A program made the translations under genes and the position numbers. This document shows positions 6,410-25,979 of a stretch of DNA of 26,418 nt, in pieces. The stretch spans positions 5,051 through 31,468 of the forward strand of contig CAYXPN010000017.1 in NCBI GenBank assembly GCA_964467075.1, written 5' to 3'. How positions within the stretch are numbered: the stretch's first letter is position 1; each line of letters begins with the position of its first letter. The DNA is from an uncultured Planctomycetaceae bacterium (GTDB lineage: Bacteria > Planctomycetota > Planctomycetia > Pirellulales > Thermoguttaceae). A model generated the notes under the pieces. It was not told where the DNA came from. It saw only the letters and a list, made by a program, of their open reading frames with translations, and did not search any database.

Positions 6410-6596
6410 GGCGTGCCGTCAGAAAATTGAGGGAGGTGGAAAGGGAAAAGCCGACCGAACGCGGCTGCCCCGCGGGCGCGCATGGGGGAAACCCGGCACG
6501 CGGGGCCGTCTAATGCCGATCCGGCTCGCCGGCCGCGCGCACGCGCAAACCCGCACGTGCCCGTTGGGGCTGGGGATGTCGAGGAAAAGGTGCGGC

Positions 6597-6627
6597 TATC
6601 TAGCGGAAAGCGGGCAGACGTGTCAAT
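6597..6627 (-). promoter_or_regulatory. Candidate sigma-70-type promoter for the TPR operon (minus-strand reading TTGACA-17 nt-CTAGAT)
   Basis: The reverse complement of 6597-6627 reads ttgacacgtctgcccgctttccgctagat. That is a perfect -35 hexamer, a 17-nt spacer and a 4/6 -10. It sits ~180 nt upstream of the TPR start codon. Sequence-motif inference only. Confidence 0.3.
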
Positions 6628-6859
6628 GCACGTTTGGGAGGGATTTTCTGCTTGTCTTGCCCGCTTTGTCAGGGCGTGCGCGTGTTTCCGATACTCACCT
6701 GCTTGGCCGGCATGCCCTGTTTATCTAAAAGAAAAGGTGACAGGTACATATATGGGGGATTTTGCGAAGACTGGGAAACCTCGGAAGCACAACGAAGTGT
6801 CTATCGGCAGCCTGCTTTGCCCAAACTCGCCATTATATGCGCCTGTCACCTTGCTTTGC

Positions 6860-6945
6860 TTGGGAGGGCGAGGCTCCCGCCGAGCCGAAGAAGCAATCGA
6901 AAGTTACGGCAACGCGCGCGGCTCGGCGGGAGCCTCGCCCTCCCA
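6860..6945. terminator. Perfect 28-bp-stem inverted repeat (tgggagggcgaggctcccgccgagccg / cggctcggcgggagcctcgccctccca, ~29-nt loop) immediately 3' of the sulfatase gene. Likely a transcription terminator or insulator hairpin.
   Basis: Read directly. The arms are exact reverse complements. Located 17 nt downstream of the sulfatase stop (6962) on its strand. No clean U-tract follows, so an intrinsic-terminator call is tentative. Confidence 0.5.
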
Positions 6946-6961
6946 AACCGTGAAACCCTAT

Positions 6962-8770
6962 TTAGTTGCCCCAGGGCTCCACGTTGCAACGCTTGGCCCA
7001 GGCCTCGTATTCGCGCGACAGTTGCTCGACCAGCACAGGGAAGCGGGGCCCCAGGTCGTGCATCTCCGTGCGGTCCGCCTCCGTGTCGTAAAGCTCCCAG
7101 GGCCCGCGGTGCCGGGCCACCAGCTTCCATTTGCCGTCGCGCACCGCGCGGTTGCCCTCGTGTTCCCAACACAGCACCCCGCGCTGCAGAACGCGACCCT
7201 CGAAGGCGGGCACCAGGCTGCGCCCTTCGATCGGGGTGAGATTGAAGCCGCCGAACTGAGCAGGATAGGAAACCTTCGCAACCTCCAGGCAGGTGGGCAT
7301 GACGTCGATCACGTGGCCGAGCTGCTCGCTCCAGCGGTTGCCCGTTCGGATCACCGCGGGCCAGCGCACGATCATGGGCGTGGCGATGCCGCCCTCGTGG
7401 ACGTCGTGCTTGTAGAGCCGGAAGGGCGTGTTGCTGACATTGGCCCAGGCGATGCCGTAGCTCTGGTAGGTGTCTTCGCCGCCGGGGTCGAAACGCGGAT
7501 CGTTGCCCACTTGCACGGGCCGGCCGTCGTGGGTCTTTTCGGGGATGTGCAGACCGGTCCAGTTCGGAGCGATCTCTTCGGCACACCCGCCGTTGTCGGC
7601 CAGAAACATCACCAGCGTGTTCTGCTCGGCGCCGATCTGCCGGAGCTTCTCCAGCACGCGCCCGATGCCCTGGTCCATCAGGTCCACCTGCGCTGCATAG
7701 ACCTCCATGCGCCGCTGTTGCCAGGACTTGTAGGCGTTCAGCTCCCACTGGCGCACGCGCGGGTCGCGGGGCGTGAGTTCCCACTGGCGCGAGATGACGC
7801 CCAGACCGATCATCCGCTGGTAGCGCTCGTTGCGCAAGGCGTCCCAGCCCGCGGCATAGCGCCCCCGATAGCGCCGCACCACGCTCTCAGGCGCGTGCAG
7901 CGGCCAGTGGGGCGCGGTGTAGGCCACGTAGAGGAAAAACGGCTTGTTCGCCCGCGCGGCCTCTTCCAGATAGAGCACGGCGTGGTCGGTGATCGCATCG
8001 GTGTAGTAATAGTCGCCCGCTTCGGGGCGGCGGATGAAGTGGTTGTCGCGCGTGAGCGTGACCGGATCGAAATAGCTGCCCCCGCCGTGGATGGTGCCGT
8101 AGAACTTGTCGAATCCCCGCTGGAGCGGCCAGTTATACCTCGGGCCCTCCGGGCCGACGAATCGCGTCACGTGCCATTTGCCGCACATCATGGTCTGGTA
8201 GCCCGCGGCGTGGAGCAACTGGGCGATGGTCACACAGCGCTGGCTGAGGTTGCCGCGATAGCCGGGCCGCCGGTGGTCCGTCATCATGTGCCCTATGCCC
8301 GCCTGGTGCGGATACAGCCCGGTCAACAGGGCGGCGCGGGTCGGGCAGCAGCGGGCGCAGTTGTAGAACTGCCGGAAGCGCAGGCCGTCTTTGGCCAGGC
8401 GGTCGAGGTTGGGCGTGAGCATCTCGCCGCCGTAGCATCCCAGATCGGACCAGCCCAGGTCGTCGGCCAGGATGATCACGATGTTGGGCACACCATCGGA
8501 GAGCTGGGCACGGGCCTGCGCCGCCCCGCTCCAGGCCACAAGGGTCATTGCCGCCCAGAGGATCGCTGCCAGGCGGGCCGCAGCCCAAAGGGCACCTGGT
8601 TCGCCCGAGGCGCAGCCCCTGCTTTGTCGATGCTTGGCCTGTCGCACGGCATTGCCTCCTTCGTCTGCGAGACTCGCCCGCCTGCGAAGCTGGTCGGCCG
8701 AGCCCACGCGGCCGGCGCGAAGTCGGCCTGCGAAGCCCGGGGCTGGCCCGCGCCGCCTTCGATCACTCAC
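6962..8770 (-). CDS. Type I sulfatase (arylsulfatase family, formylglycine-dependent), secreted
   Basis: IVIILADDLGWSDLGCYGG...CARCCPTRAALLTGLYPHQAGIGHM carries the C-x-P-x-R FGly signature plus the conserved LTG and metal-binding DD motifs. A hydrophobic signal-like segment ALWAAARLAAILWAAMTLVAWSGAAQA is present. The true start may be downstream of 8770. Confidence 0.9.
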   Translation of the reverse strand: MSDRRRRGPAPGFAGRLRAGRVGSADQLRRRASLADEGGNAVRQAKHRQSRGCASGEPGALWAAARLAAILWAAMTLVAWSGAAQARAQLSDGVPNIVIILADDLGWSDLGCYGGEMLTPNLDRLAKDGLRFRQFYNCARCCPTRAALLTGLYPHQAGIGHMMTDHRRPGYRGNLSQRCVTIAQLLHAAGYQTMMCGKWHVTRFVGPEGPRYNWPLQRGFDKFYGTIHGGGSYFDPVTLTRDNHFIRRPEAGDYYYTDAITDHAVLYLEEAARANKPFFLYVAYTAPHWPLHAPESVVRRYRGRYAAGWDALRNERYQRMIGLGVISRQWELTPRDPRVRQWELNAYKSWQQRRMEVYAAQVDLMDQGIGRVLEKLRQIGAEQNTLVMFLADNGGCAEEIAPNWTGLHIPEKTHDGRPVQVGNDPRFDPGGEDTYQSYGIAWANVSNTPFRLYKHDVHEGGIATPMIVRWPAVIRTGNRWSEQLGHVIDVMPTCLEVAKVSYPAQFGGFNLTPIEGRSLVPAFEGRVLQRGVLCWEHEGNRAVRDGKWKLVARHRGPWELYDTEADRTEMHDLGPRFPVLVEQLSREYEAWAKRCNVEPWGN

Positions 8771-10180: not shown

Positions 10181-11092
10181 TTAGCGCGCCAGCGCCAGGC
10201 TCAGCAACCAGGACAGCACAAACCGCTTGGCCAGGCGCCCGTCGCTCAGCACGCGCAAGGGCCAGCGTCGCAGCAGCAGGTAACAGAGGCTGCGAAACGG
10301 ACGGTAACGATGGGCCTTGTAATAGGCGCGGGCCAGTTCCAGCAATTCGCGCCGTTGGAGCATATCGATCCGTGGTCCCAGCCGGGCGGCCACCACCGGA
10401 TGGCGGCGCAGGTGTTCGACCATGCGCAGCCCCTGGCTCACGTAGCGATCGTACTGTGTGCGTGCCGAGGCATCCACGCGCCGCACCTGCGCCACATGGG
10501 TGCCGCAGAAACGGAATTCCAGTTGGGCGGCCAGCCGGATCAACAACTCGATGTCCTCGCGGTAGCTGAGGTCTTCGCGGTACATGCCCAGGCGCAACAT
10601 GGTGTCGCGCGCGAGGAGATAGCCGTTGTTGTCCATAAACGGTCGACGCACAAACGTCTTCAGCACGTCCCCCTCGACCCTCTCGGCGGCGAAGCTCGCC
10701 AGCGACACCTCGCCCTCGCCGCCCCGCGACAGCCCGTAGGCCACGCCTGCAAATCCCGGATCGTCCAGAAACAGGCGCATGCGGCTCTCCACAGCCCAGG
10801 GCAAGAGCAGGTCGTCGGAATCAAGCATGCAGACGTATGACGCGTCGGTGGCCTGGATGCCGAGATTGCGCGCCGCAGACTTTTCGCCGTTCAACGGCCG
10901 GCGAATCAGGTGAATGCGATCGCGGTAGCGGGCTTGAAGCTGCTCCGAGGTGCCGTCGGTCGAAGCGTCGTCGACCACCACGCACTCGACGTTGGGCCAG
11001 GACTGGCCGAAAACCGAGTCAACCGCCTGGCAGACGTGCGGCCAGCGGTTGTAGGTCGGGATGATGACGGCCACTTTGGGGCGTAGCAACAT
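10181..11092 (-). CDS. Family 2 glycosyltransferase
   Basis: KVAVIIPTYNRWPHVCQAVDSVFGQSWPNVECVVVDDASTDGTSEQL...YVCMLDSDDLLLP is a typical GT-A/GT2 N-terminus with a DxD-like DSDD motif. Confidence 0.85.
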   Translation of the reverse strand: MLLRPKVAVIIPTYNRWPHVCQAVDSVFGQSWPNVECVVVDDASTDGTSEQLQARYRDRIHLIRRPLNGEKSAARNLGIQATDASYVCMLDSDDLLLPWAVESRMRLFLDDPGFAGVAYGLSRGGEGEVSLASFAAERVEGDVLKTFVRRPFMDNNGYLLARDTMLRLGMYREDLSYREDIELLIRLAAQLEFRFCGTHVAQVRRVDASARTQYDRYVSQGLRMVEHLRRHPVVAARLGPRIDMLQRRELLELARAYYKAHRYRPFRSLCYLLLRRWPLRVLSDGRLAKRFVLSWLLSLALAR

Positions 11093-11279
11093 GCCGACAG
11101 CCGGGGGAAAGGGGGATTGAGAGCGGCCCAGAAGCCCACTATGCGTGCTGTCTCCCTGGCAAATCGGCGCATTGCCGCCGAATCTTTAAACCTTTTCTGT
11201 GGATTCCGATCGCCCATCGTTACTAGAAGGAATCGGGAAGATGCGAAGTTTGGGAAACATGCATTACATAGAGAAGAAC

Positions 11280-13788: not shown

Positions 13789-14982
13789 ATGACCACCCCA
13801 GTGCCCCGAGGCTTCCTCTTGGCCGGTGTCCACTGCCGGCTGAAGCGCGATCCCCAGAGGCCGGACCTGGCCCTGATCCTCTCCGAACAGCCCGCCACGG
13901 CCGCGGGCGTGTATACGCGCAATTTGGTCTATGCGGCGCCGGTGGCGCTGGACTCCAGCCGCACGCCCACCGATCGGGCACGCGTGGTGGTGGTCAACTC
14001 GGGCAATGCCAACGCCTGCACCGGCCCGCGCGGACTGGAGGATGCGCGGCGCATGGCCCAACTGGCGGCCGCGGCCTGCGGGGCAAAGGAGCACGAAGCG
14101 CTCGTGCTCTCGACCGGCGTGATCGGCCAGTATCTGCCCATGGACCGCATCGAGCAGGGTGTGTCGGCCGCGGCGGTGAAGCTCGACGACCACGAGGCAG
14201 CCGTCGAGTCCGCGGCCCTGGCCATGATGACCACCGACACGGTGCCCAAAATCTGCGCGCGCACGATCCAGGCCCGCGGCGGGGAAATCCGCCTGCTGGG
14301 ACTGGCCAAAGGCGCGGGCATGATCAGCCCCCAGATGGCCACCATGCTCTCGGTGGTGCTCACCGACGCGGCCCTCGACCCGGAAACAGCCCAGCAGTTG
14401 CTCGCCGCGGCCGTGGATCAGACGTTCAACTGCCTGAGCATCGACGGACATATGAGCACCAACGACACGGTGCTGCTCTTGGCCAACGGCGCAGCCGGCG
14501 GCGAGCCGCTCGCCGGCGCCGAGCTGGACGCGTTTCGCGGCGCGCTGGTCGAAGTGTGTGCGGGGCTGGCCCGCGCGATCGCCGCGGACGGCGAAGGGGC
14601 CTCGCACCTGGTCACCATCGAGGTGTCCGGTTGTGCCACCGAGGAAGACGCCCGCCGGATCGCCCGGAGCATTGCCGACAGCCTGCTGGTCAAGTGTGCG
14701 ATCGCGGGGGCCGACCCGAACTGGGGACGGATCGTTTCGGCCGCGGGCTACGCGGGCGTGGCCTTCGATCCGGCGCGGATCAGCCTGCGCGTGAACGGCC
14801 ACCTGCTGTATGACGAGGGCGCGCCTGTGGAGTTCGACGCGCGCACGGTCTCGCAAAGCATGAGGGACAACCGGGAGGTGCTCATCGAGCTGTCGCTGGG
14901 CGCAGGCGATGCCGGGGCGCGTTTCTGGACCACGGACCTGACCGCGGAATACGTGCGCCTGAATGCGGATTATCATACGTGA
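13789..14982 (+). CDS. argJ: Bifunctional glutamate N-acetyltransferase / amino-acid acetyltransferase ArgJ
   Basis: Full-length ArgJ-like sequence, including the autoproteolytic site ...GMISPQMATMLSVVLTD (A|TML) and NSGNANACTG. Confidence 0.93.
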   Translation: MTTPVPRGFLLAGVHCRLKRDPQRPDLALILSEQPATAAGVYTRNLVYAAPVALDSSRTPTDRARVVVVNSGNANACTGPRGLEDARRMAQLAAAACGAKEHEALVLSTGVIGQYLPMDRIEQGVSAAAVKLDDHEAAVESAALAMMTTDTVPKICARTIQARGGEIRLLGLAKGAGMISPQMATMLSVVLTDAALDPETAQQLLAAAVDQTFNCLSIDGHMSTNDTVLLLANGAAGGEPLAGAELDAFRGALVEVCAGLARAIAADGEGASHLVTIEVSGCATEEDARRIARSIADSLLVKCAIAGADPNWGRIVSAAGYAGVAFDPARISLRVNGHLLYDEGAPVEFDARTVSQSMRDNREVLIELSLGAGDAGARFWTTDLTAEYVRLNADYHT

Positions 14983-15063
14983 CAAGGTGGGATATTCGTG
15001 GTACGCTGGTTCGTCAGGCGTGGGCCAGTATTGGGGGGCGATGCAAAAAGGGGAGATCTTGTC

Positions 15064-16518
15064 ATGACGTTGAACGAGGAATCCTTGTGCGAAGAAAAAG
15101 AAGTACGGCTCTTCCCGTCACATCACATCCGTTCGGACAGAGAAGCCGAGCCCAGAGCCACAGCCGCATTCCTGGCTGTGGTCCGTGCTGTTTCGAAGTT
15201 CGGCAAGCGCATTGTGTCAATCGCGGGTGGGCCGGGAGGCAGGATTGGTTGTTATCCCGAGGTGCCTATCCAGGTTGGTGTGGGTCCCGATTCCCGTATT
15301 GAGAGGCCCGATGGCATCATCCGAGCCACCTGGGGCAAGAAGGATTGGGCCGCGCTGGTGGAAGTCAAGGTGGGAGAGAACCCACTTGACCACGACCAAG
15401 TCGAGCGATATCACAAGCTGGCGTACGAAACGGGTATCAATGCGCTGATTACCGTCAGCAATCAGGCGGCACTGCCGAACGGGCTGCCCCCCGGCATCAA
15501 GGTGAAGGCCTCGCACCTCAAGAAGGTCCCTGTGGCGCATCTCTCATGGGAGAGGCTTCTCAGCGAGGCACAAGTGTTGACGCGGCGCAAGAGCGTTGCA
15601 GATCGTGACCAGGAGTGGATTCTGGAAGAGTGGGTTCGCTATCTCGTCGATCCCGCCTCCCGGATCATCAAGCCTCCGGATCTGGGACCACACTGGCACA
15701 GAGTTGTTCAGTATGCGAGACAAGGAAATCTCGGCGCGTGCAAGAGCGAAATGCAAGACGTAGTGGAACGATGGGATGCTTTCTTGAGAAAGACCGCTCT
15801 CAGACTGCGGGCGAAGTTGGGCGCCGAGGTGAGGGTGGTCATGCCTCGCGCGGAGCGGACTGATCCTGCGGTGCGACTCAAGAACTTGCTGGGCGTTGCC
15901 CTTAACGATCAGCAGTTGTCGGGCACTTTCCGTGTTCCGCACGCTGCCGGCGACATGTCTGTAGTCGTACTGCTCCCGGCTAGATCCGTGCAGTACGTTC
16001 TCGATGTCAAGGCACCGACAGAAGGCAGGCCCAAGACGCAGCTCAAGTGGATCATCAAGCAGCTAGCGTCGGGAGAAGTGCCGGACGACCTTGTCGTTCA
16101 CGTAGATTGGGGGTATCGTGTATCATCTCAGGCACCTGTTGTAGAGGCCGAGCAACAGATCGAGGCGCTCTTGTGGGACAGCAACAAACAACCCATTCCT
16201 ACAAAATCCGAACCACGCTGTTTCTACCTCAGACGCACTACGGCTCTGGCCAAGGGTAAGGGACGCTCGACGGCAGGAGTATTAGAGGGTATCGCCCAGG
16301 GAATGGAGGACTTTTACAGACGCGTCGTAGAGAAGGTCAAACCCTACGTGCAAAAGGCCCCCCAAATGCCCCGGGAAGAGCGCGACCAACAGCCTCCCGA
16401 TGTGGTGTCACGTGAACAAGCCGAAGGCCAATCCGAATCGGCCACCGCTACGCCGTCGACCACGCCCATCCAAGAATCGGCAAAGCAGGGCACGCCGGTC
16501 GGTGATTCTGATTCGTGA
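15064..16518 (+). CDS. Hypothetical protein with N-terminal RecB/Cas4-like PD-(D/E)xK nuclease domain and an unknown ~350-aa C-terminal region ending in an acidic S/T-rich tail. Compositionally foreign (candidate orphan defence-type nuclease).
   Basis: ATG at 15064 preceded by aaaggggag at proper spacing. Motifs, numbered from this Met: E66 (YPEVP), D83 (RPDGII), E100-V-K102 (ALVEVKV), Q112-VER-Y116 (QxxxY). GC is ~56% versus ~68-72% for flanking genes. Many A/T-ending codons (gaa, aaa, gta, tca, aga, tat, caa). Confidence 0.7.
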   Translation: MTLNEESLCEEKEVRLFPSHHIRSDREAEPRATAAFLAVVRAVSKFGKRIVSIAGGPGGRIGCYPEVPIQVGVGPDSRIERPDGIIRATWGKKDWAALVEVKVGENPLDHDQVERYHKLAYETGINALITVSNQAALPNGLPPGIKVKASHLKKVPVAHLSWERLLSEAQVLTRRKSVADRDQEWILEEWVRYLVDPASRIIKPPDLGPHWHRVVQYARQGNLGACKSEMQDVVERWDAFLRKTALRLRAKLGAEVRVVMPRAERTDPAVRLKNLLGVALNDQQLSGTFRVPHAAGDMSVVVLLPARSVQYVLDVKAPTEGRPKTQLKWIIKQLASGEVPDDLVVHVDWGYRVSSQAPVVEAEQQIEALLWDSNKQPIPTKSEPRCFYLRRTTALAKGKGRSTAGVLEGIAQGMEDFYRRVVEKVKPYVQKAPQMPREERDQQPPDVVSREQAEGQSESATATPSTTPIQESAKQGTPVGDSDS

Positions 16519-16698
16519 AACCCGTGCGCCAGGTTGCCTGCTGCCGCGAATTCGAGAAACACGCACTGATTCCGGATCGTCCGGTCCAATACACGATCTG
16601 TTCCTGCGCTAGCGCTCCGTTGACCAGCCAACTCCGCTACCTGACTCGCTCCTGACCCACTCCACACAGAAGCGGTTGGCTGTTCCTGCGCGCCCTAT

Positions 16699-18471
16699 GT
16701 GGAAAGCCCACGGATGCACAGCCCACTGTTCGCTCTAGCTGAGGCGCGAGATTTCTGGCAATGGACCCTGGAAATCCTGCTGCTGCTGGCAGCAGCCATG
16801 GTGCTCGGCGCCGTAGCCGAGCGCCTGCGCCAGAGTGCCATTGTGGGCTACCTGATCGCCGGCGCGGTCATCGGCCCGAACATGCTGGGCGTGGTCGCGC
16901 AGCAGCAGGACCTCTTCGCCATCGCCGAGCTGGGCGTGGCACTGCTGTTGTTTACCATCGGACTGGAGTTCGCCCCGCAGCGCCTCTGGGGCCTGGGACG
17001 CCTGGCCTTTCTGGCCGGCCTGCTCCAGGTGCCCGTGACCATGGCCCTGGCAACCGTGGTTTGCCGCCTGGCGGGCATGCCGCTGGCCGCGGCAACGGTC
17101 GTCGGCGCCATGGTTGCCATGTCCAGCACCGCGTGTGTGTTGCGAATCCTGGCTGACCGGGCCGAGATGGACAGCCCTCACGGGCGCATTTGTTTGGGGA
17201 TTCTCTTGGTGCAGGATGCCGCGGTGGTGCCGCTGCTGGTGGTGGTCACGGTGCTGTCTGCGGGAAAGGGCGGGCTGGGTCCTTGGTGGCAGCTCGGACT
17301 GGTGACCGTCTCGGCATTCGTGCTGGCCGGGGTGTTCTACGTGCTCTTCGCGCGCGTGGCACCCCGGTTGATGCAGCTTCGCACGTGGCTGCGCAACCGC
17401 GACCTGCCGATCCTGCTGGCCATCGTGATGGCGCTGGGTTCCACGTGGGCCGCCCACCAGGCCGGCTTGAGCCCGGCGCTGGGCGCCTTCCTGGCCGGGG
17501 CCCTGCTGGCGGCCTCGCCCTTTGCCGTGCAAATCCGGGCCGACGTGGAGCCGGTCAAGACCATCCTGGTCACGCTCTTCTTTGCGTCCATGGGCATGTT
17601 CGGGGATTTCGGTTGGCTGCTTGAGCACGCGGGCCTCGTGTTCACAGTGGTCGCAGCCGTGATTCTCGGCAAGGCCGCGGTCGTGGCCGCGATCACGCGG
17701 CTTATCGGCGCCTACTTCCCGTTCGCCGTGGCCTCCGGCTTGTGCGTGGCACAGATCGGCGAGTTCTCCTTCGTGCTGGCCACCGTCGCCCGCGGCGAAA
17801 ATGGAAACGGAGCATTGCTCTCGGATACCGCGTTCCGCGCGATCGTCTCGGCCACCTTGATCAGCCTGCTCGTGACCCCGTATCTGATCGCCGCAGGGCC
17901 GCGGTTGGGCTATCGGCTGCACCGGGCGTTCCACGAGGCGCTGCGCCGCTTGCGCCGACGCGCCACGCGCGCAGGAGGCCAGCCGGATAAGCCATTGGCG
18001 CCCGACGCGCAACCGGAAGGCGACGAGGCCCAGGGCGGCCCGGAAGACCTGATCCTGGTGGTCGGCTTCGGCCCGGCCGGCCAGCGCGCAGCCGAACAGC
18101 TCGCCGCCACTTGCGCCGTGCAGGTGGCCGTGTTGGATTTGAACATCGAGAACGTGCGGCTGGCCGAGCGCTGCGGGCTGGCTGCGTATGCGGGCGACGC
18201 CACCCAGGTCGAAGTGCTCCAGCACGCGGGGCTCCATCGCGCCGCGGCGGTGATCGTCACCGTGCCCACGCCCCGGGCTTCGCGCCGGCTGATAGCACTG
18301 ATCCGCCATCATGCGCCCGCGGCCTTGATCGTGGCCCGGGCCCGGTATCACATCCACCGCTGGCAGCTCGTCCATGCGGGGGCCCACGTGGTGGTGGACG
18401 AGGAGGACGAAGTGGGCCACCATCTGGCCGCGGCGCTGGTGGGACTCTTGGAGGGCAAAGAGGGCGATTGA
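16699..18471 (+). CDS. Kef-type monovalent cation:proton antiporter (CPA2) with C-terminal TrkA-N/RCK domain
   Basis: Twelve or more hydrophobic helices (GYLIAGAVIGPNMLGVV..., LFTIGLEF...). C-terminal Rossmann motif LILVVGFGPAGQRAAEQL. The start may be the ATG at 16714. Confidence 0.9.
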   Translation: MESPRMHSPLFALAEARDFWQWTLEILLLLAAAMVLGAVAERLRQSAIVGYLIAGAVIGPNMLGVVAQQQDLFAIAELGVALLLFTIGLEFAPQRLWGLGRLAFLAGLLQVPVTMALATVVCRLAGMPLAAATVVGAMVAMSSTACVLRILADRAEMDSPHGRICLGILLVQDAAVVPLLVVVTVLSAGKGGLGPWWQLGLVTVSAFVLAGVFYVLFARVAPRLMQLRTWLRNRDLPILLAIVMALGSTWAAHQAGLSPALGAFLAGALLAASPFAVQIRADVEPVKTILVTLFFASMGMFGDFGWLLEHAGLVFTVVAAVILGKAAVVAAITRLIGAYFPFAVASGLCVAQIGEFSFVLATVARGENGNGALLSDTAFRAIVSATLISLLVTPYLIAAGPRLGYRLHRAFHEALRRLRRRATRAGGQPDKPLAPDAQPEGDEAQGGPEDLILVVGFGPAGQRAAEQLAATCAVQVAVLDLNIENVRLAERCGLAAYAGDATQVEVLQHAGLHRAAAVIVTVPTPRASRRLIALIRHHAPAALIVARARYHIHRWQLVHAGAHVVVDEEDEVGHHLAAALVGLLEGKEGD

Positions 18472-18590: not shown

Positions 18591-20240
18591 CTACTCGCTC
18601 CGGCTCTCGGTGCGATCGGGCTTGGGCGAGTCGCCTTGCGCGGCATCCGATCGGCCGGCCGGCTGCTGGTCCTGGGTGGTGGCGAATCGGGCGAGCACCT
18701 CGGGGATTTCCACCCCGCCCACGTCGCGCAGCACCTGCATCATGGGCGGCAGGGTGCGGGCCATGTTGTGCAGCCAGTTGGCCGTGGCCGACGTGCCGTT
18801 GCTGGAGCCGGAATCCCACACCACGACCTTGTCGAAGCGGATGTTGGAGATGGCCTCGGCCGAAGCCTGGGCCAACTGGTCGAAGTGTTCGAGCATGAGC
18901 ATCTGGAAGGCCTGCTCGGCGCCGCCGCAGGCCTCGATGATCGCGTGCAGGCCTTCGCCTTTTTTGGCCAGGATTTCGTACTGGCCGCGGGCCTCGGCTT
19001 CGAGTCGGGCGAAGATGGCCTGGGCTTCGCCTTCGGCCTCGATGCGGCGCTTTTCCTTTTCGGCTTCGGCCTCGACGATGATCCGCGCCTTCTGTGCCTT
19101 GGCCGGCGCTTCGAGTTCGGCGCGCCGCTCGGCTTCGATGCGCTCGGCCTCGGCCAGGGCGGCCTTGGCCAGGGCGTGGTGCTGGGCCTGGAGCACCGCG
19201 GCTTCGGCCACGCGTTTGCGCGTCTCGCCCAGCTCGTAGGCCTCGGCCTCTTTGACTTTCAGAGCCGCCAGCGAAGCGGCGATCGTGGCCCGCGCCTCGT
19301 TCTCGCCTTCGACGGCCTGGGCGTTGGCTTCGGCCACGCGCACACGTTTTCCGCGTTCGGCGTCGGCCACTTGCGAGTCGCGTTCGAACTCCGCGCGCTG
19401 CTCGCCGACGACTTGTTCCTTCGACAAGTCGGCCACGCGGACCGCGGTTTCGCGTTCGGCCTCGCGCGTGCCGATGGTCTGGTCCCGGCGGGCGTTGGCC
19501 ACCTGGATGGCCTTCTCGCGTTCGGCGTCGGCCACGCGGATTTCGCCCATCTTCTCATTGTCGGCCACGTCCCCGCGAGCCTGCTGGATCGCCTCGCTGG
19601 CGGCTTTCTGGCCGATGGCTTCGATGTAGCCCGACTCGTCGGTAATGTCGGTGATATTGACATTGATCAGCACCAGTCCGATCTTGCGCAATTCGGGTTC
19701 CAGGGAGAGCTGGATGTTTTCGAGGAATTTTTCCCGGTCGCGGTTGATGTCCTCGATCTGCATCGAGGCGATCACCTGGCGCAACTGGCCGAAGATGATG
19801 TCTTCGGCCTGGCGCTTGATGTCCTGCGTAGCCAGGCCCAGCAGGCGGATGGCCGCGTTCTGCATCAGCTCGGGTGTGGTGCCGATGGCCACGGTGAACA
19901 CGCTGGGCACGTTCACGCGGATGTTCTCGATCGAGAGCGCACCGCGCAGGGGAATTTCGATCTGCATCGGCTCCAGGTTCAGCCAGCCGTGATCCTGGAT
20001 CAGCGGCCATACAAAGCGCGCCCCGCCGTGCACGCAGGTTGCGGCCTGCCCGCCGCGCGACTTCCCGTAGATCACCAGCACGCGGTTGCTAGGGCAGCGC
20101 TTGTAGCGCTTCACAAGCAGACCGAGCACCAGCGAGAACACGATCACTGCCGCAAACAGCAGCAGCACCAGCCAGAAATAGAAGTTCGCATTGTCGGCGA
20201 GGTCTTGCAGCAAGTCGGCCGCCAGCAAGAGACTACTCAT
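18591..20240 (-). CDS. Flotillin-family (SPFH/band-7) protein, YqiK/FloA-like, with long Ala/Glu/Arg-rich coiled-coil
   Basis: Start at MSSLLLAADLLQDL (ATG at 20238-20240, aaggagg Shine-Dalgarno). N-terminal TM then SPFH domain (RVLVIYGKS...IENIRVNVPSVFTVAIG...). Long EA-rich region (AEAERIEAERRAELEAPAKAQKARIIVEAEAEKEKRRIEAEGEAQ) is typical of flotillins. Confidence 0.9.
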   Translation of the reverse strand: MSSLLLAADLLQDLADNANFYFWLVLLLFAAVIVFSLVLGLLVKRYKRCPSNRVLVIYGKSRGGQAATCVHGGARFVWPLIQDHGWLNLEPMQIEIPLRGALSIENIRVNVPSVFTVAIGTTPELMQNAAIRLLGLATQDIKRQAEDIIFGQLRQVIASMQIEDINRDREKFLENIQLSLEPELRKIGLVLINVNITDITDESGYIEAIGQKAASEAIQQARGDVADNEKMGEIRVADAEREKAIQVANARRDQTIGTREAERETAVRVADLSKEQVVGEQRAEFERDSQVADAERGKRVRVAEANAQAVEGENEARATIAASLAALKVKEAEAYELGETRKRVAEAAVLQAQHHALAKAALAEAERIEAERRAELEAPAKAQKARIIVEAEAEKEKRRIEAEGEAQAIFARLEAEARGQYEILAKKGEGLHAIIEACGGAEQAFQMLMLEHFDQLAQASAEAISNIRFDKVVVWDSGSSNGTSATANWLHNMARTLPPMMQVLRDVGGVEIPEVLARFATTQDQQPAGRSDAAQGDSPKPDRTESRSE

Positions 20241-20868
20241 AGCCGATCTCCTCCTTTTCGGGGATTGGCTCGACTTCGACGGTGTCGGTGCTGACCACAC
20301 GTGTTACCACAACCGTAGCACCCGAACCCAGGCGTTGCCCGGCGGTTACCGCCAAGTATTCCATGGTCCGGTTTTGCAGGTTGATTTGGATTTTCCCGGC
20401 GCCGGAATTGTGCGCGGGGATTGGAACGTACACAGTGGCAGGCCGGCCGACGGCGCGTTCGATGCGTGCCGTACCTTCCGATTGCAGCTTGTACATGGCC
20501 TGCATCAACCAGAACACGCCGTACATGGCGGCCAGCCCGGCGCCCACGGCAACCGCCACCGCGAGCGCAACACCGGCCCCGGCCGCCTCCGCGGCCAGGC
20601 CCGCCAGTCCGAAGAACGTTAGCGCGGCGACCAGCGTGCGAAAAGAGAGCACGCCGAGGATCCAATCGGCTTCCGGGTGTCCCAGGTCGCCCGCATCGTG
20701 AGTGGGCAAATCCACGTCCAATGCGTCGGCCCCGTCGAGCCCGCCCGACACATCGCCGCCGAAGTCGGCATCGGCAACCTCGCCGCCGAACCCGACGAAC
20801 ATCAATATGAACTGGATCACAAGGATCGTACCGCCTACCACAGCGCAGAGCAGGAAAACGGTCGTCAT
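20233..20868 (-). CDS. NfeD/YqiJ-like membrane protein (flotillin partner)
   Basis: Start at MTTVFLLCAVVGGTILVIQFILMFVGF (ATG at 20866-20868). Two hydrophobic segments plus a C-terminal beta-rich soluble part (GKIQINLQNRTMEYLAVTAGQRLGSGATVVVTRVV). The stop overlaps the flotillin ATG by 8 nt (tATGAGTAG). The longer upstream ORF extension has no coding character. Confidence 0.7.
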   Translation of the reverse strand: MTTVFLLCAVVGGTILVIQFILMFVGFGGEVADADFGGDVSGGLDGADALDVDLPTHDAGDLGHPEADWILGVLSFRTLVAALTFFGLAGLAAEAAGAGVALAVAVAVGAGLAAMYGVFWLMQAMYKLQSEGTARIERAVGRPATVYVPIPAHNSGAGKIQINLQNRTMEYLAVTAGQRLGSGATVVVTRVVSTDTVEVEPIPEKEEIGYE

Positions 20869-21603
20869 CGCTGAAACCTTTCCCGAGTCGATTTGCACGC
20901 ATGCAAACTCCCCGCTGATTATTCGCTCGAACCCAGCCGGGCTTGGATTCCGATCGGTCGGGAAGCGCCGGCCGTGGGTGCCGCTCGGCGGGGGATTCGT
21001 TTGCCGTGTCGAAACTGGACTCCTGCAAAATGCCGATCTCGGTTTCGCCACGTCCCACCGGAAGGGGCCCTGCGCCTTGCGGTGTAGGGAAGTTGCGCAA
21101 GTGAGGAAAAGCGTTTCCGCGCTGGCTCCCCCCTCATTCCTGGCCCTCTGCGAGAGGGAAAAGTCGACCACGCTGCGAGAGCGCGGTTGAAAGCTTCGGC
21201 AAGGATTCTCGGCCCACGCCAACCCACAGGGGTGCTGACGCTGCCTCTCGAAAGGCAAGCAAGAGAGCCCCGGACGGATATCACGATAGTCGCATCCCCC
21301 CGTTTGTCAACAGCGCCATTCAGGGGGAAAGCCGCGCCGGATCGAGCACTACGTGCTCGACCGGGCAGCCCGTAGGCTGCGTGCTTGCAGCACTGCTGTA
21401 AACGTCTTCGTGTGGCGAAAATGCCAAGGAAAACGGTGATTCGCGGGGTATGTGTGTATCGCGTCACCCGAACCCCAACGGGGTTCGAGACAAAAGCCCA
21501 GGGTCAGCTTCCGCGGCCGCCGGGCCGCGAAGCGCCACCCTGGGTCATCGAGGGCGCCAATTCCCGCACCTACCCCGAAGGGGTTGGGTAACCGTTCACG
21601 GGC

Positions 21604-21666
21604 CGTCATTGTCGCCTTTCGCTCCGCGAAAGTGGCGCTGCTTTCGCGGAGCGAAAGGCGACTATC
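21604..21666. other. Perfect 22-bp-stem hairpin (gtcgcctttcgctccgcgaaag-tggcgctg-ctttcgcggagcgaaaggcgac)
   Basis: Arms at 21611-21632 and 21641-21662 are exact reverse complements with an 8-nt loop. It sits in the long region with no convincing coding gene, 8 nt upstream of an AT-rich 49-codon ORF. Confidence 0.8.
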
Positions 21667-22259
21667 CACGCGAAATGGCCCGAAAACGGGCAGCGGCCCG
21701 TGAACAGTTAGGACTTGTAAAGGAATTGTTTGCCGAATTCGATGCGCAGCCCCGGGAAGTAATACTCTTACAAGTTCTTACTCGCGGCCTGAAACCCGGG
21801 GTGGCGCGGCCTGGCGGCCGCTGACCCCGGGCTTTGGAATCCAACGCCTTCGGCGTTGACTCGGTCGGCGCAGCGCTCACCACACAGCGGGCAGGAGCCT
21901 TGGCCGAACACTCCCGAAAGATGTTTACAGCACTGGTACAAGCACGCACCCTACGGAAGGCAAAGGGGACAGGCCCATCCGCGCTGCGCGAAAACGCGCT
22001 GGTGCCCCGCGCGCCGCCGCATCCGCGCGCAAGCCGCCAGCCCCGAAGATCCGGACATATATCGCGCCCCTTCGGGGCTGGGACGCTGGGCGTGCCGGAG
22101 CGGGTCGGCGGGTGATGCTGACCACGTCGCCTTTTGCGGGGCTCGGGGCACTTGGTAGGCCGACGTTTCCCGTGGGCTTTCGCAGACGGCCAAATAGGGT
22201 TTCACGCAAGGCCATTTACCATCCTCGGCCCCTGCGGAGCCGGAAGGCCCGCGCATGTC

Positions 22260-22285
22260 CACCTCAGACGGCTGAAGTGCTACGT
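22260..22285. repeat. 26-bp palindromic motif c[ac]c[ct]tcagacggctgaagtg[ca]tacgt, copy 1 (copy 2 at 26195-26220, same orientation)
   Basis: Copy 1 is cacctcagacggctgaagtgctacgt. Copy 2 is cacttcagacggctgaagtgatacgt. The two bracket the tRNA-Arg and the beta-propeller cytochrome gene. Confidence 0.8.
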
Positions 22286-22294
22286 AGTTGTGAT

Positions 22295-22420
22295 GGTGTC
22301 CGGGAATCGTCCTCGGATTGCGCTGGAAGTGTGCCACTGCTTGCCCGCCGGGCAAGCAGTGCTCGGGGCGGCGAGGCACTACTTCTGGCGAAGCAGTGGC
22401 ACACTGAATTCCCGGACACC
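22295..22420. other. Nested imperfect palindrome (~125 nt): outer stem ggtgtccgggaat/attcccggacacc, inner 15-bp stem agtgtgccactgctt/aagcagtggcacact, small central hairpin cttgccc-gcc-gggcaag
   Basis: Read directly from the sequence. Candidate structured RNA or protein-binding cruciform ~350 nt upstream of the tRNA. Confidence 0.7.
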
Positions 22421-22767
22421 CGCACGGAGCTCGAAACCCACCCGCGGAGCGCTGCCACCTTCAGCCTGCCGATCCACAGCTTCTCCAAGGCGCGGCCCTC
22501 TGCAAGGCGCAGCCCGCTCGTGCCCGGCCGCGGCAGCGCATTGCGACCACGGCCGGGCAGGGTAGAATAGACGTAGCACGCGGGCCAAACGGAGCGACCC
22601 GGCGGGCGATAGCCTTCGGCCGCGGGACGGCGCCGTGTTTCGACCGCCACACGCGGTTCTTTCGGCTGCCACACGCGGTTCGCACCGAAAACCGTCGGCC
22701 GACAAACCCGGGCCCGTCGCCTTCGGCTCCGCAAGCGGCAGCACCGCCCGCGGGCCAGACCGTGCCA

Positions 22768-22840
22768 GCGCCTGTAGCTCAGGGGATAGAGCGACGGTTT
22801 CCTAAACCGTAGGTCGCAGGTTCGAATCCTGCCAGGCGTA
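22768..22840 (+). tRNA. tRNA-Arg (anticodon CCT)
   Basis: Manual fold of the 73-nt sequence: acceptor GCGCCTG/CAGGCGT (one G-U), D-arm GCTC-AGGGGATA-GAGC, anticodon stem ACGGT/ACCGT with loop TTCCTAA (anticodon CCT), T-arm GCAGG-TTCGAAT-CCTGC, discriminator A. CCA is not encoded. Confidence 0.85.
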
Positions 22841-23465
22841 CTTCCTGCTTCCTTCCTGCTTTGCGTCGCCGGGAAGTCGGCCGTCTATTCCGGCATCGCC
22901 ATCGATATCCCCGTGGGCAAAGGCTGGGGCACGCAAGCCTCACCCAGTGATCCGGAGGACGTTTATCGCGCCGTCCGCCGCGCACGAGATGCGGGCGCGT
23001 GGGGAGGGGAATCGTCGTCTGTCGGGAGCACGAAGAGATGCACGAGGCCAGCCTGCGAGCCATCGGCCGGGCGATTCGGGAGGGCTGGAGGGGCTGAACC
23101 AAGGGCTTGCCCGATACTCGTGGCGATTCCGCCCGGCGCCAAACCAGGCAGTCCGAGCCGATGACCGAGGGCCTTGTGCCCACTTCACTCGGCTGAACTG
23201 TTACGCAGATCGAAGGTCGATCGCCGCGGCGCTGATCGCCCCCAGCGGCCGCCGGCACGCGCCGTCAACCCCGATGGCGAGCAAGGCGGGAAAGGACGTC
23301 GATTGCGAGAAGCCGACGGCATTGACAATTGTCGAAGCCCAAACACAATTCATTGCAGACGATGAAGCCAACCACATGCGACGCTGCGCCATGCGCGAGC
23401 CGCGGCGGGAGTGAGTCGCGCGTGAAAGAGGCGCCGACGTATTCATACCAGTTACGCAGGAGGCG

Positions 23466-25979
23466 ATGACCATGATCAACCCGCGGAACCCCAACCAGCG
23501 ATTCTGGCTTCCAGCAGTGCTGGGCGTGTGGCTCCCTCTGGCCGGCTGGGCCGCCGCGGCAGAGTCGCCTGCTGGGAATCCCGCCGCGGAGCCCGGACCG
23601 GTGCTGAGCGAAGCGCTGGCCGGCCCACTGGCGCACGTGGAGGACGTGGTATTCGCCGTCCGCTTGCCCTACGACGACCCCCACTGGTACGCCAACATCG
23701 GGTACTACTGCGACGACGAGCAGCACAAAGCGTACGCGGGCAACGGCCGGCCCGACGTCGGGCGGTTGTGCAAGCTGCAAATCCGGACCGGCAAGGTAAC
23801 CGCGCTGTTGGACGCGCCGGGCGGTTCGGTGCGCGACCCACAGGTTCACTACGACGCCCGGAAGGTGCTCTTCTCGTTCCGCCCGCCCGGGTCGGACCAC
23901 TACCACCTCTACGAAATCGGCCTGAACGGTCAAGGGCTGCGCCAGATCACCTCGGGCGATTACGACGACTACGAGCCCGCGTATCTTCCCGACGGCAGGA
24001 TCGTGTTTGTTTCGACGCGGTGCAATTGCTGGGTCAACTGCTGGATGACTCAGGTGGGCGTGCTCTACCGGTGCGACGCGGACGGGGGGAACATCGAGCG
24101 CGTGTCCTACAGCCCCGAGCACGACAACACGCCGTGGGTGCTGCCCGACGGGCGCATCCTCTACACGCGCTGGGAGTACGTCGACCGAAGCCAGGTCGAT
24201 TTCCATCACCTGTGGACGATGAATCCCGACGGCACCTCCCAGATGGTCCTCTACGGCAACATGCACCCTCGGGTGGTGATGATCGACGCGAAGCCGATTC
24301 CCCACAGCAACAAGATTGTGGCTTCCTTCTCTCCCGGCCACGGGGTGACCGACCACAAGGGCATCGCGACCGTGCTTACGCCGGCCGCCGGGCCCGATCA
24401 GCAGGCCGCCGCGGTGGCCCTCCACGAGCGCCCGCTGGTGGAGGACCCTTATCCGCTTTCGGAAGACTGTTTCCTGGCGGCTCGCGGCAAGCAGATTCTG
24501 GTGATGAACGGGTCGGGCGAGACGGAGCCACTACTGACGTGGCCCGAGGATGGCGACGTTCGCGAGCCGCGGCCCGTGGTGGCGCGGCCGCGCGAACGGG
24601 TGATCCCGGACCGTGCCGATCCGAGTCAGCGCACGGGACGATTCGTGCTTACGGACGTCTACCACGGGCGCAACATGGCCGGCGTGCGCCGCGGCGAGAT
24701 TCGCAAACTGCTGGTGCTGGAAATCCTTCCCAAGCAGGTGAACTTCAGCGGCGGGCAGGATTTGACCTCTTGGCTGGGGACCTTCACGCTGGAACGGGTG
24801 CTGGGAACCGTGCCCGTGGAGCCCGACGGCTCGGCCTACTTCGAGGCTCCGGCGGGACGCCCGATCTTCTTCGTAGCGCTGGACGAGCACGACCTGTCGG
24901 TCAAGCGCATGCAGAGCTTCACCAACGTGGCGCCGGGTGAGGTGCTGGGCTGCGTGGGTTGCCACGAATCGAGGACCGACACGCCGGAGAGCCGCACGGC
25001 GCGGGACCTGCTGGCGCTGCGCCGCGCGCCCAGCCCGATCGATCCCTTCGAGGATTTCCCCGACGTGCTGGACTTCCACCGCGACGTCCAGCCGATCCTC
25101 GACAAGCACTGCGTGGCCTGTCACGACTACGACAGTCGGTCGGGCAACGTCCTGCTGACCGGCGACCTGGGGCCCGTCTGGTCCCACAGCTACTTCTCGC
25201 TGCTTGCGCATCGGCAAGTTGCGGACGGCCACAACGGACTGGGCAACCAGCCGCCGCGTGCTCTGGGCAGTTCGGCCAGCGCGCTGCTCGAAAAACTGCA
25301 AGAGAGCCACTATGAAGTGAAGGTATCGGCGGAAGAGTGGCGCACCGTGTGGCTTTGGATCGAGAGCGGCGCGCCCTACGCCGGCTCGTACGCGGGCTTG
25401 CGCAACAAGGAGACGCAGGAGATCGCGGGAAGAGCCGTCGCCGCCGTCTTCTCGCAGGGCGCCGCGGTGCTCAACCGCGGCTGCCGCGGGTGTCACGCCG
25501 CCGAGGAAGCCGACAGCGGGCAGGCACCGCCGCTGCCGCTGAGGTTCGAAGTGCGATACAACAGCCGCGGCACGGATCGACCCATGGCGCCGTACGAACG
25601 GATTGTGCTTGCGGACGACCCTCTCGCCAGGTTCAGCAGCAACATCCTGCTCAATTTCTCGCGTCCTTCGCTCTCCCCGCTGCTCCTGGGACCATTGGCC
25701 AAGCAGGCGGGCGGCTGGGGCAGTTGCGGGCACGTGTTCGCGGACACCGACGATCCTGACTACCGGTTGCTGTTGGCCGCCTTGCAGAAGGGCAAGGCCG
25801 AGATCGACGCCGCGCCGCGCTACGCAACCCCGGGATTCCGGCCCAACCGGCAATACATCCGCGAACTGAAGAGATACGGGGTGTTGCCCGCTTCCTTCGA
25901 CATCGCGAGAGAGGAGCTCGACGTGTTCCAGGCCGACCAGGCGTACTGGAAGTCTGTCTGGCTCAGACCGCAGAGATAG
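23466..25979 (+). CDS. Secreted beta-propeller (PD40/TolB-like) protein with a C-terminal c-type cytochrome region carrying three CXXCH haem-binding motifs
   Basis: Signal peptide MTMINPRNPNQRFWLPAVLGVWLPLAGWAAAAE. Repeated PDG(R/T)IxF(x)S / YxxDxxG propeller-blade motifs (LPDGRIVFVSTR, LPDGRILYTRWEY, MNPDGTSQMVLY). CXXCH motifs at nt 24948-24962 (CVGCH), 25110-25124 (CVACH) and 25483-25497 (CRGCH). The start could be the second ATG at 23472 (better Shine-Dalgarno spacing). Confidence 0.8.
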   Translation: MTMINPRNPNQRFWLPAVLGVWLPLAGWAAAAESPAGNPAAEPGPVLSEALAGPLAHVEDVVFAVRLPYDDPHWYANIGYYCDDEQHKAYAGNGRPDVGRLCKLQIRTGKVTALLDAPGGSVRDPQVHYDARKVLFSFRPPGSDHYHLYEIGLNGQGLRQITSGDYDDYEPAYLPDGRIVFVSTRCNCWVNCWMTQVGVLYRCDADGGNIERVSYSPEHDNTPWVLPDGRILYTRWEYVDRSQVDFHHLWTMNPDGTSQMVLYGNMHPRVVMIDAKPIPHSNKIVASFSPGHGVTDHKGIATVLTPAAGPDQQAAAVALHERPLVEDPYPLSEDCFLAARGKQILVMNGSGETEPLLTWPEDGDVREPRPVVARPRERVIPDRADPSQRTGRFVLTDVYHGRNMAGVRRGEIRKLLVLEILPKQVNFSGGQDLTSWLGTFTLERVLGTVPVEPDGSAYFEAPAGRPIFFVALDEHDLSVKRMQSFTNVAPGEVLGCVGCHESRTDTPESRTARDLLALRRAPSPIDPFEDFPDVLDFHRDVQPILDKHCVACHDYDSRSGNVLLTGDLGPVWSHSYFSLLAHRQVADGHNGLGNQPPRALGSSASALLEKLQESHYEVKVSAEEWRTVWLWIESGAPYAGSYAGLRNKETQEIAGRAVAAVFSQGAAVLNRGCRGCHAAEEADSGQAPPLPLRFEVRYNSRGTDRPMAPYERIVLADDPLARFSSNILLNFSRPSLSPLLLGPLAKQAGGWGSCGHVFADTDDPDYRLLLAALQKGKAEIDAAPRYATPGFRPNRQYIRELKRYGVLPASFDIAREELDVFQADQAYWKSVWLRPQR

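Follow-up and report, generated by a model that had tools for sequence, protein, structure and literature searches.

In a 26,418-nucleotide stretch of DNA from an uncultured Planctomycetaceae bacterium (contig CAYXPN010000017.1, positions 5,051 to 31,468), hereafter called the window, a single gene poor in guanine and cytosine (GC) lies between argJ and a gene for a Kef-type K+/H+ antiporter and encodes a putative nuclease of the PD-(D/E)xK superfamily. The gene occupies positions 15064-16518 of the + strand, to which the window positions of the protein features below also refer, and comprises an ATG start and 1455 nucleotides, stop codon included, for a protein of 484 amino acids. We propose, with a probability of roughly one in two, that the product is a DNase whose activity is controlled by its C-terminal adaptor-like module, perhaps by the acidic tail, and that it has a role in genetic conflict, most likely in defence against incoming DNA. 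The protein is a member of a large and unnamed accessory family. This family has a fixed architecture of three parts, spreads across phyla and is often met as a lone GC-poor gene amid conserved genes, on mobile elements or beside defence genes.

Domain organisation of the predicted nuclease

The structure predicted for the full protein (predicted local distance difference test, pLDDT, 87; predicted template modelling score, pTM, 0.82) contains at residues 58-175 (15235-15588) a catalytic core with the alpha-beta-beta-beta-alpha-beta fold of the PD-(D/E)xK superfamily. The initial annotation of the window had listed a catalytic signature of E66, D83 in hPDGhh, E100-x-K102 and Q112-x-x-x-Y116, and all of these elements are present, as RPD83G, E100-V-K102 and Q112-VER-Y116 (codons of E66, 15259-15261; D83, 15310-15312; E100, 15361-15363; K102, 15367-15369; Q112, 15397-15399; Y116, 15409-15411). 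In the model D83 stands at the start of strand 84-90, E100 and K102 go with strand 93-101, and Q112 and Y116 lie on helix 110-123, which supports the PD-(D/E)xK fold anticipated around D83, E100 and K102. Conservation was counted over 133 representatives of clusters at <=50% identity and in a second alignment of 49 sequences: D83, E100 and K102 are invariant in both (133/133 and 49/49), and of the 133 representatives 132 retain Q112 and Y116 and 129 retain E66. Because this invariance holds in divergent relatives, the motifs are not a chance occurrence. The nuclease part had been confined to the first ~135 residues, but in the model the domain extends to about residue 175. Ahead of it (residues 1-57, 15064-15234) lie a conserved N-terminal (V/A)RL(F/I) motif and then two helices with E29 and R31 (25-42 and 44-53 in the model), and this region too is well kept among the 133 relatives (R15 in 125, L16 in 129 and E29 in 129).

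Sequence profiles and the model together point to a PD-(D/E)xK nuclease with a preserved active site that is nearer to VRR-NUC than to RecB/Cas4, and that scores as a member of neither. VRR-NUC was the only recurring Pfam signal among the relatives, and a sub-threshold one (15 of 49, best E 3.8e-4), the homologue P0177 giving E 0.0025 and 18.3 bits, short of the Pfam gathering score of 23.8 bits; PDDEXK_4 appeared below threshold in two of the 49, and the PDDEXK_1 and Cas_Cas4 models were absent among them at E <= 1. For the window protein itself Pfam returned nothing at E <= 10, NCBIfam, PHROGs and PADLOC-DB v2.0.0 gave no meaningful match, and sequence searches of the PDB, with the single protein or with a profile of the 49 sequences, yielded only noise (E > 0.6). 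The Foldseek search that the initial annotation had recommended found weak restriction endonuclease (REase) matches in the PDB and no full-length analogue. When the N-terminal half was set against known structures, the comparison figure was highest for AF1548 (9.5), FokI (8.3), AspBHI (8.3) and BspD6I (8.2), followed by NucS (7.4), MspJI (7.3), Can1 (6sce, 7.0), McrC (7.0), Cas4 (6.9 and 6.2), Can2 (8bao and 7bdv, 6.8 and 6.7), Hna (6.7), Cap4 (6.4), SduA (6.3) and VRR-NUC (6.0). Of the RecB/Cas4-like character first assigned to the protein, the conserved QxxxY motif stands, whereas neither a match to a PDDEXK_1 or Cas_Cas4 hidden Markov model (HMM) nor the cysteines of an Fe-S cluster were found; a conserved cysteine set is lacking in the family, C63 alone being semi-conserved (58 of 133 relatives). 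Identity with Cas4 is ruled out by the missing cysteine cluster and the missing CRISPR context.

The remaining ~350 residues, which had been said to match nothing, are indeed uncharacterised, but their fold class is recognisable. A conserved helical linker (residues 176-282, 15589-15909; D180, E189, Y193 and W237) leads into an alpha/beta domain (residues 283-441, 15910-16386) that ends in a conserved FY...PYVxxAP motif and is assigned to the fold class of YktB (DUF1054), YbjN and the type III secretion chaperones. For this half the comparison figure was 8.2 for YktB/DUF1054 (2a8e, 160 residues aligned), 7.9 for a PF0168-like structure (1yb3), 7.5 for DUF1054 (3mqz), 7.0 for AmyR and Tll0839 of the YbjN family and 6-7 for type III secretion chaperones of the Spa15, SicP, SycN and CesT type, and the comparison revealed no DNA-reader fold, ATPase or helicase. 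Since sequence identity to these structures is only 5-12%, they indicate a fold class and no functional assignment; the class is typically one of dimeric adaptors that bind proteins or peptides. The protein closes with a disordered acidic tail rich in Ser, Thr and Pro (residues 442-484, 16387-16515; pLDDT < 50), present as annotated and with an isoelectric point of 4.05 against ~9.2 for the remaining protein. Its sequence is not conserved, being variable in the alignment of the family (A1), and homology to the orthologue at locus L001, described below, ends near 16380.

Two candidate identities could be set aside at this level. The protein has neither a signal peptide nor a transmembrane segment, which rules out a secreted toxin, and the window holds no small partner open reading frame (ORF), which rules out a toxin-antitoxin pair.

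Acquisition of the gene and spread of the family

Genes in high-GC DNA were called by the rule that GC at third codon positions (GC3) exceeds that at first and the latter that at second positions (GC3 > GC1 > GC2). The ~1.45-kb gene lies where it had been annotated, between argJ and the Kef antiporter gene. The left flank, argJ (13789-14982, + strand; Pfam ArgJ at the orthologous locus), is 87-89% identical to the argJ of the relatives L001 and L088, and its stop codon lies 81 nucleotides before the nuclease gene; the right flank, the antiporter gene (16699-18471, + strand; Pfam Na_H_Exchanger), follows after 180 nucleotides, and its N-terminus is 85% identical to the Kef of L088. An alternative, longer ORF opens with GTG at 14998, but 48 homologues align from the ATG instead. 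The strong Shine-Dalgarno sequence attributed to the gene can be read from the DNA as the Shine-Dalgarno-like AAAGGGGAG at 15046-15054 (+ strand), with the ATG 9 nucleotides further on. The GC content of the gene is 0.583 (0.574-0.590 in 500-nucleotide segments) against 0.67-0.70 on both flanks, a marked depression as the initial annotation had held, at a value slightly above its ~56% in a ~70% GC genome. GC3 is 0.647, compared with a mean of 0.817 (standard deviation 0.061) across 16 further window genes (z = -2.8), and the A/T-ending codons that the host genes were said to avoid make up 35% of the gene, compared with 13% in argJ and 15% in kef.

From these features the gene had been proposed to be a horizontally acquired single-gene insertion between housekeeping genes, and a comparison of the junction in related genomes had been suggested as a check. 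Loci of relatives were found through a search for argJ homologues and inspection of their contigs, and they bear the proposal out. In L088 (argJ 89% identical) the orthologous Kef gene follows argJ directly after 310 nucleotides, so that this locus represents the empty site. Some 1.67 kb of the window (about 15010-16680, + strand) stands where L088 has ~245-273 nucleotides of unrelated spacer: blastn pairs L088 1174-1455 with window 14701-14982 and L088 1729-2051 with window 16681-17000, and in the alignments (A3, A4) homology fades ~30 nucleotides past the argJ stop codon and resumes near 16680. L001 (argJ 87% and argC 89% identical), on the other hand, carries a nuclease orthologue with 76% amino acid identity at the same place after argJ. 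This orthologue is equally GC-poor (0.57-0.59 vs 0.68-0.70), its 81-nucleotide leader is conserved, and the left-hand synteny sulfatase-DZR-GT2-DUF72-argC-argJ is common to both loci; the right-hand neighbour differs, being a TrmE-like GTPase of housekeeping type. In L086 (argJ 82% identical) the gene after argJ is another, short ORF, and the contig ends beyond it. An orthologue of native GC content in all relatives, the pattern of a vertically inherited housekeeping gene, was looked for and is not what the relatives show.

Between the window and L001, synonymous divergence (dS) is 0.51-0.56 for the nuclease gene, 0.44 for argJ and 0.57 for argC, and the ratio of nonsynonymous to synonymous divergence (dN/dS) is 0.22-0.27 for the nuclease gene vs 0.11-0.17 for argJ and argC. 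Given that dS equals that of the flanks and that the orthologue stands at the same place in L001, the gene entered once, before the two lineages split, and has since been inherited with its flanks under purifying selection. Its foreign GC3 has been kept through a dS of ~0.5.

The borders of the insertion hold no target-site duplication, terminal inverted repeat, integrase, tRNA or terminator, an Rfam scan of the window detected only a distant tRNA-Arg, and the borders give no clue to the mechanism. The sole repeat found there is an exact 12-nucleotide direct repeat, CTGTTCCTGCGC, at 16598-16609 and 16680-16691; its second copy is placed exactly where homology with the empty site resumes, and it may be a recombination scar or due to chance. 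The position after argJ shows four right-hand states in this planctomycete clade, namely the nuclease gene with kef, the nuclease gene with the GTPase, kef alone and another gene (L086 7215-7346, the end of L087, L001 11519-12721 and L088 1765-2736), from which we infer that the junction after argJ is a variable spot. Two contigs end immediately behind argJ, suggesting that strains are heterogeneous at this position.

Beyond this clade, a word-indexed search identified 130 full-length relatives, all annotated as 'hypothetical' and none with Pfam domains, and an exhaustive profile search returned 1,859 clusters (50% identity) at E <= 1e-3 and 625 at E <= 1e-30. At least 252 pattern-confirmed copies exist among ~185,000 one-per-species genomes. 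Copies occur in Planctomycetota, Gemmatimonadota, Acidobacteriota, Bipolaricaulota, Latescibacterota, Eisenbacteria and Krumholzibacteriia, and a more distant clade (~30% identity) in Alpha- and Gammaproteobacteria has cultured hosts (Pelagibacterium, Microvirga, Nitratireductor, Hyphococcus, Halomonas, Mesorhizobium and Marilutibacter). The patchy distribution, together with ~50% identity across phyla, argues for horizontal spread. The family gene is GC-poorer than its flanks in 61 of the 73 loci with enough flanking DNA (median difference -0.055, Wilcoxon p = 3.7e-10).

All-against-all clustering of the ORFs in 84 loci revealed no universal partner gene and no conserved enzymatic partner. 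Upstream neighbours are mostly conserved housekeeping genes, such as argJ and those for ribonucleotide reductase, GroEL, PheT, CarB and MetE, and downstream neighbours are mixed, including OLD/AAA_15 ATPase-nucleases, UvrD and DUF559. In L089 (5824-15443) a family member sits in an apparent integrative mobilisable element next to recA, which carries, besides this nuclease gene, genes for PIN_4, a 647-residue protein without assignment, a MobA/MobL relaxase, AlpA, a second such protein of 753 residues and DUF2357/PDDEXK_7; another copy lies beside IS21. No copy was present among IMG/VR viral contigs or INPHARED phages. A protein of ~1,560 amino acids (DUF4011, superfamily 1 helicase, MTES_1575 REase and DUF3320) adjoins the family gene in four loci (L055 9395-14083, L077 9241-14085, L023 5952-10703 and L078 2833-7629) and may be either another facultative partner or a fellow resident of defence islands. 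Three copies are broken, two of them frameshifted (L018 7944-8495/8459-9487 and L029 2461-3468/3369-3857) and one split by ~3.6 kb of inserted DNA (L021 7965-8846 and 12453-13415); these may be pseudogenes or long-read assembly errors.

This pattern of insertion is also what a selfish, free-standing homing-type nuclease could leave behind, one that cleaves within or close to conserved genes where a genome lacks it and is copied in by repair. PD-(D/E)xK homing endonucleases exist, and such an enzyme would account for single-gene insertions beside conserved housekeeping genes without an integrase, for presence and absence at the same intergenic site (nuclease gene between argJ and kef in the window, argJ-kef in L088) with neither terminal or target-site repeats nor integrase or tRNA, for upstream neighbours that are often highly conserved across the family and for the foreign composition of the gene in most hosts. 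We nevertheless hold this alternative to be unlikely, given that the insertion loci vary widely between genomes and share no target gene, that the protein is large and its conserved non-nuclease half is under purifying selection, that co-divergence with the flanks for a dS of ~0.5 amounts to long vertical retention instead of a cycle of gain, decay and loss, and that the phage collections contain no copies, although genes of this type are commonest in phages.

TerD fusions, channel neighbours and the proposed role

About 20 of the top 150 representatives carry an extension of 250-300 residues at the N-terminus that is a TerD domain (PF02342; Pfam E down to 1e-43). Such fusions include P0157, P0174, P0177, P0182, P0188, P0200 and P0238, and in P0198 the TerD domain is C-terminal. 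They are actinobacterial, coming from Nocardia, Nakamurella and linear plasmids of Streptomyces and Rhodococcus (plasmid loci L084 8221-10263 and L085 8173-10269), and the plasmid copies of the family are exclusively of this form. Public records label them simply 'TerD family protein' or 'stress response protein SCP2' and leave the nuclease-plus-adaptor part of ~450 residues unannotated. On Rhodococcus pLP337 the TerD-fused gene follows genes for SIR2, a ThiF-type E1, a JAB/MPN protein and DUF6602 and precedes IS110, and on Streptomyces glaucescens pSglau1 the family gene lies near a polymorphic toxin, DUF3883 and a helicase. In 164 loci drawn from genome and metagenome collections the TerD HMM found nothing, in protein or neighbourhood; by Pfam the window protein lacks a TerD domain, and no terZABCDE-type cluster is nearby. 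TerD has been treated as a ligand-binding module of conflict systems, and a TerD-dependent anti-phage system has been mentioned (PMC7159879, PMC3710099). Literature searches on TerD-nuclease fusions or channel-nuclease defence systems returned nothing specific. The family, its architecture and its links to TerD and to channels have no Pfam, NCBIfam, PADLOC or PHROGs model and do not appear in the searchable literature, which did not cover Anantharaman 2012.

A further association concerns ion channels. Downstream of the family gene, six of the 84 genome loci carry a gene for a six-transmembrane channel of ~260 amino acids, in all six with a TTVGYGD K+ selectivity filter and an S4 arginine ladder. 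The channel gene is on the same strand in L018 (9563-10339, +), L029 (3766-4581, +) and L034 (9326-10126, +), overlapping the nuclease stop codon by 4 nucleotides in the last; it is convergent and 13-32 nucleotides away in L030 (9564-10427, -) and L035 (7256-7996, -), and in L023 (10737-11462, -) it is placed beyond the giant helicase. An independent metagenome sample added a gene of the voltage-gated K+ channel (Kv) type 46 nucleotides downstream in L107 (1688-2383), a truncated copy in L117 (2741-3058) and, 290 nucleotides downstream in L167 (6345-7283), a channel resembling the bacterial voltage-gated Na+ channels (BacNav; TLESW). The nine channel loci come from different phyla, seven being Kv-like, one truncated of that type and one BacNav-like. 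In 84 stretches of ~16 kb (~1.3 Mb of flanks), five of the six channel genes are within 100 nucleotides of the nuclease 3' end, and by our estimate it is very unlikely that they came to stand so near by chance. Among themselves the nucleases with a linked channel reach only 26-47% identity, and the channel is missing from their nearest relatives, so the link is either old and often lost or repeatedly formed. The antiporter gene beside the window nuclease fits this cation theme, and a Kef gene adjoins the family gene also in L050; yet the adjacency in the window may be coincidence, because the empty site shows that Kef was already there.

The channel linkage, which is tight in a scattered subset of lineages and may extend to translational coupling, and the TerD fusion allow a more specific proposal, in which the family would be the nuclease arm of a conflict system, so far unrecognised, that is coupled to membrane signals: the chaperone-like domain would dock on the channel tail or sense a change in ion or ligand and so switch the DNase on. 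The trigger might be, for example, the efflux of K+ and the depolarisation that go along with the entry of phage DNA, TerD would serve in Actinobacteria as a fused Ca2+- or ligand-binding domain, and the stand-alone form beside Kef in the window would use host channels or another trigger. We regard this proposal as quite unlikely.

The broader reading that we prefer, a regulated DNase of genetic conflict, can be formulated as follows. The protein would be a stand-alone, metal-dependent PD-(D/E)xK DNase, predicted to be catalytically intact, whose basic N-terminal domain cuts DNA by means of D83, E100 and K102, with Q112 and Y116 assisting in placing the substrate. The helical linker and the YbjN/type III chaperone-like domain would form a dimerisation and regulatory or sensing module, which would license cleavage on binding a protein, a peptide or a small ligand; until then the acidic disordered tail may mask the DNA-binding surface, and the TerD domain fused in Actinobacteria would add further input. 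Such a protein would act as the effector of a conflict system, a one-gene sensor-nuclease directed against phages or other mobile DNA. The neighbours counted in favour of this role are the MobA/AlpA/PIN/PDDEXK_7 set, IS21, SIR2, the E1-JAB module, IS110, the polymorphic toxin, OLD/AAA_15 and the DUF4011-helicase-REase protein.

Several observations weigh against a function in conflict. With no PADLOC, PHROGs, Pfam or NCBIfam match, the family cannot lean on any tested defence system; nor does the window form a defence island, and the upstream neighbours across the family are mostly housekeeping genes; copies are absent from the phage and viral-contig collections mentioned above. Retention at one locus for a dS of ~0.5 is also compatible with a host function outside defence. 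Nuclease activity, substrate, trigger and phenotype are all predictions from sequence and model.

To a solitary modification-dependent (Type IV) or otherwise orphan restriction endonuclease, in which the C-terminal module would recognise modified or foreign DNA, we give only a slim chance. A single, horizontally mobile gene with no methyltransferase nearby would suit such an enzyme. The C-terminal module, however, matches protein-binding adaptor folds and contains neither an SRA or winged-helix fold nor any other known to read DNA, the domains come in the opposite order to those of MspJI and AspBHI, no Mrr, McrBC or MspJI model matched in Pfam or PADLOC, and there is no GTPase partner in the window, the TrmE-like GTPase of L001 being of housekeeping type. 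Slimmer still is the chance of a host nuclease of DNA repair or recombination, VRR-NUC-like and structure-specific, that is a lineage-specific housekeeping gene and GC-poor by happenstance: VRR-NUC enzymes act on branched DNA, and the sub-threshold similarity in 15 of 49 relatives, the purifying selection and syntenic retention in two genomes and a copy located 2.9 kb from recA would agree with it, but the gene is lacking in a relative with an 89% identical argJ, it is rare and patchy (at least 252 copies in the ~185,000 genomes), its identity is ~50% across phyla, its GC content is systematically below that of its hosts, and copies reside on plasmids and mobile elements.

If the reading as a defence or conflict nuclease is true, the family represents a new and widespread one-gene nuclease system that current defence-finding tools miss, because none of the Pfam, NCBIfam, PADLOC or PHROGs models matches it. 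In this system a VRR-NUC-like DNase would be joined to an adaptor domain resembling a chaperone, a pairing absent among the solved structures searched, and the unannotated 450-residue part of the actinobacterial 'TerD family proteins' would gain a function. Should the pairing with voltage-gated K+ and Na+ channels prove functional, the electrical state of the bacterial membrane would be tied to DNA cleavage. Even on a conservative reading the locus is a clean natural case of one foreign gene taken up between housekeeping genes.

The remaining window and comparison with known systems

The gene has no methyltransferase, helicase or ATPase partner near it, as had been noted, and the remaining window is housekeeping in character: it encodes a flagellar rod protein, a sigma-54 activator, a histidine kinase, TPR, sulfatase and GT2 proteins, DUF72, argC, a flotillin-like Band 7 protein, tRNA-Arg and a PD40/hydrazine-synthase-alpha (HZS-alpha)-like protein. 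Three ORFs with reduced GC3 (0.74, 0.67 and 0.69 vs ~0.85), at 20233-21258 (-), 22112-22570 (+) and 22947-23414 (+), lie in a lower-GC stretch (19500-21750, 0.61-0.63) and around tRNA-Arg(CCT) (22768-22841); the ORF of 341 amino acids among them has no Pfam match, and this may be a second patch of acquired DNA. GC content also dips to 0.596 at 6501-7000, over the 3' end of the sulfatase gene and its intergenic region, and to 0.608 at 10751-11250, at the 5' end of the GT2 gene. The 837-residue protein encoded at 23466-25979 (+) combines PD40 beta-propeller repeats with a match to the hydrazine-synthase-alpha middle domain (E 6e-19 in the Pfam scan), which is unusual outside anammox bacteria.

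Among the described nucleases that come close to the family is VRR-NUC (PF08774; the C-terminal domain of FAN1 and stand-alone phage and bacterial forms), with which it shares the PD-(D/E)xK core and the only recurring, sub-threshold sequence signal. The arrangement E-V-K followed ten residues on, in the next helix, by a conserved Q (E-V-K-x9-Q) corresponds to the VRR-NUC motif of FAN1. VRR-NUC domains, however, comprise ~100 amino acids and are stand-alone or fused to helicases or to SAP/UBZ, and are not known with a helical and YbjN-like half, and the window family, whose representative in the window gives no Pfam match, adds the conserved N-terminal RLF/EAE motif. With RecB, Cas4 and AddB the family has in common the QxxxY on the helix after ExK, but it lacks the HMM match and the four-cysteine Fe-S cluster, and the window gene has neither helicase nor CRISPR context. 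The resemblance to YktB (DUF1054), YbjN and the type III chaperones is one of fold only: no protein of these groups is joined to a nuclease, and their functions (unknown, regulator or effector chaperone) are not transferable to the window protein. TerD-centred stress and anti-phage systems are linked to the family through its actinobacterial members, which carry TerD, whereas the window protein does not.

The window protein matches no anti-phage system described in PADLOC-DB v2.0.0, Shedu (SduA, DUF4263) included, and its family is known here from sequence alone, with a non-catalytic module whose predicted fold differs from that of Shedu. Both folds, and the design that unites a nuclease and a regulatory module in one gene, are known already. 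The Shedu-like logic with a different domain order that the initial annotation had seen in the gene holds with respect to that order, which is reversed, the DUF4263 nuclease being C-terminal in Shedu, behind a variable sensor at the N-terminus, and the nuclease N-terminal in the window protein and its family.

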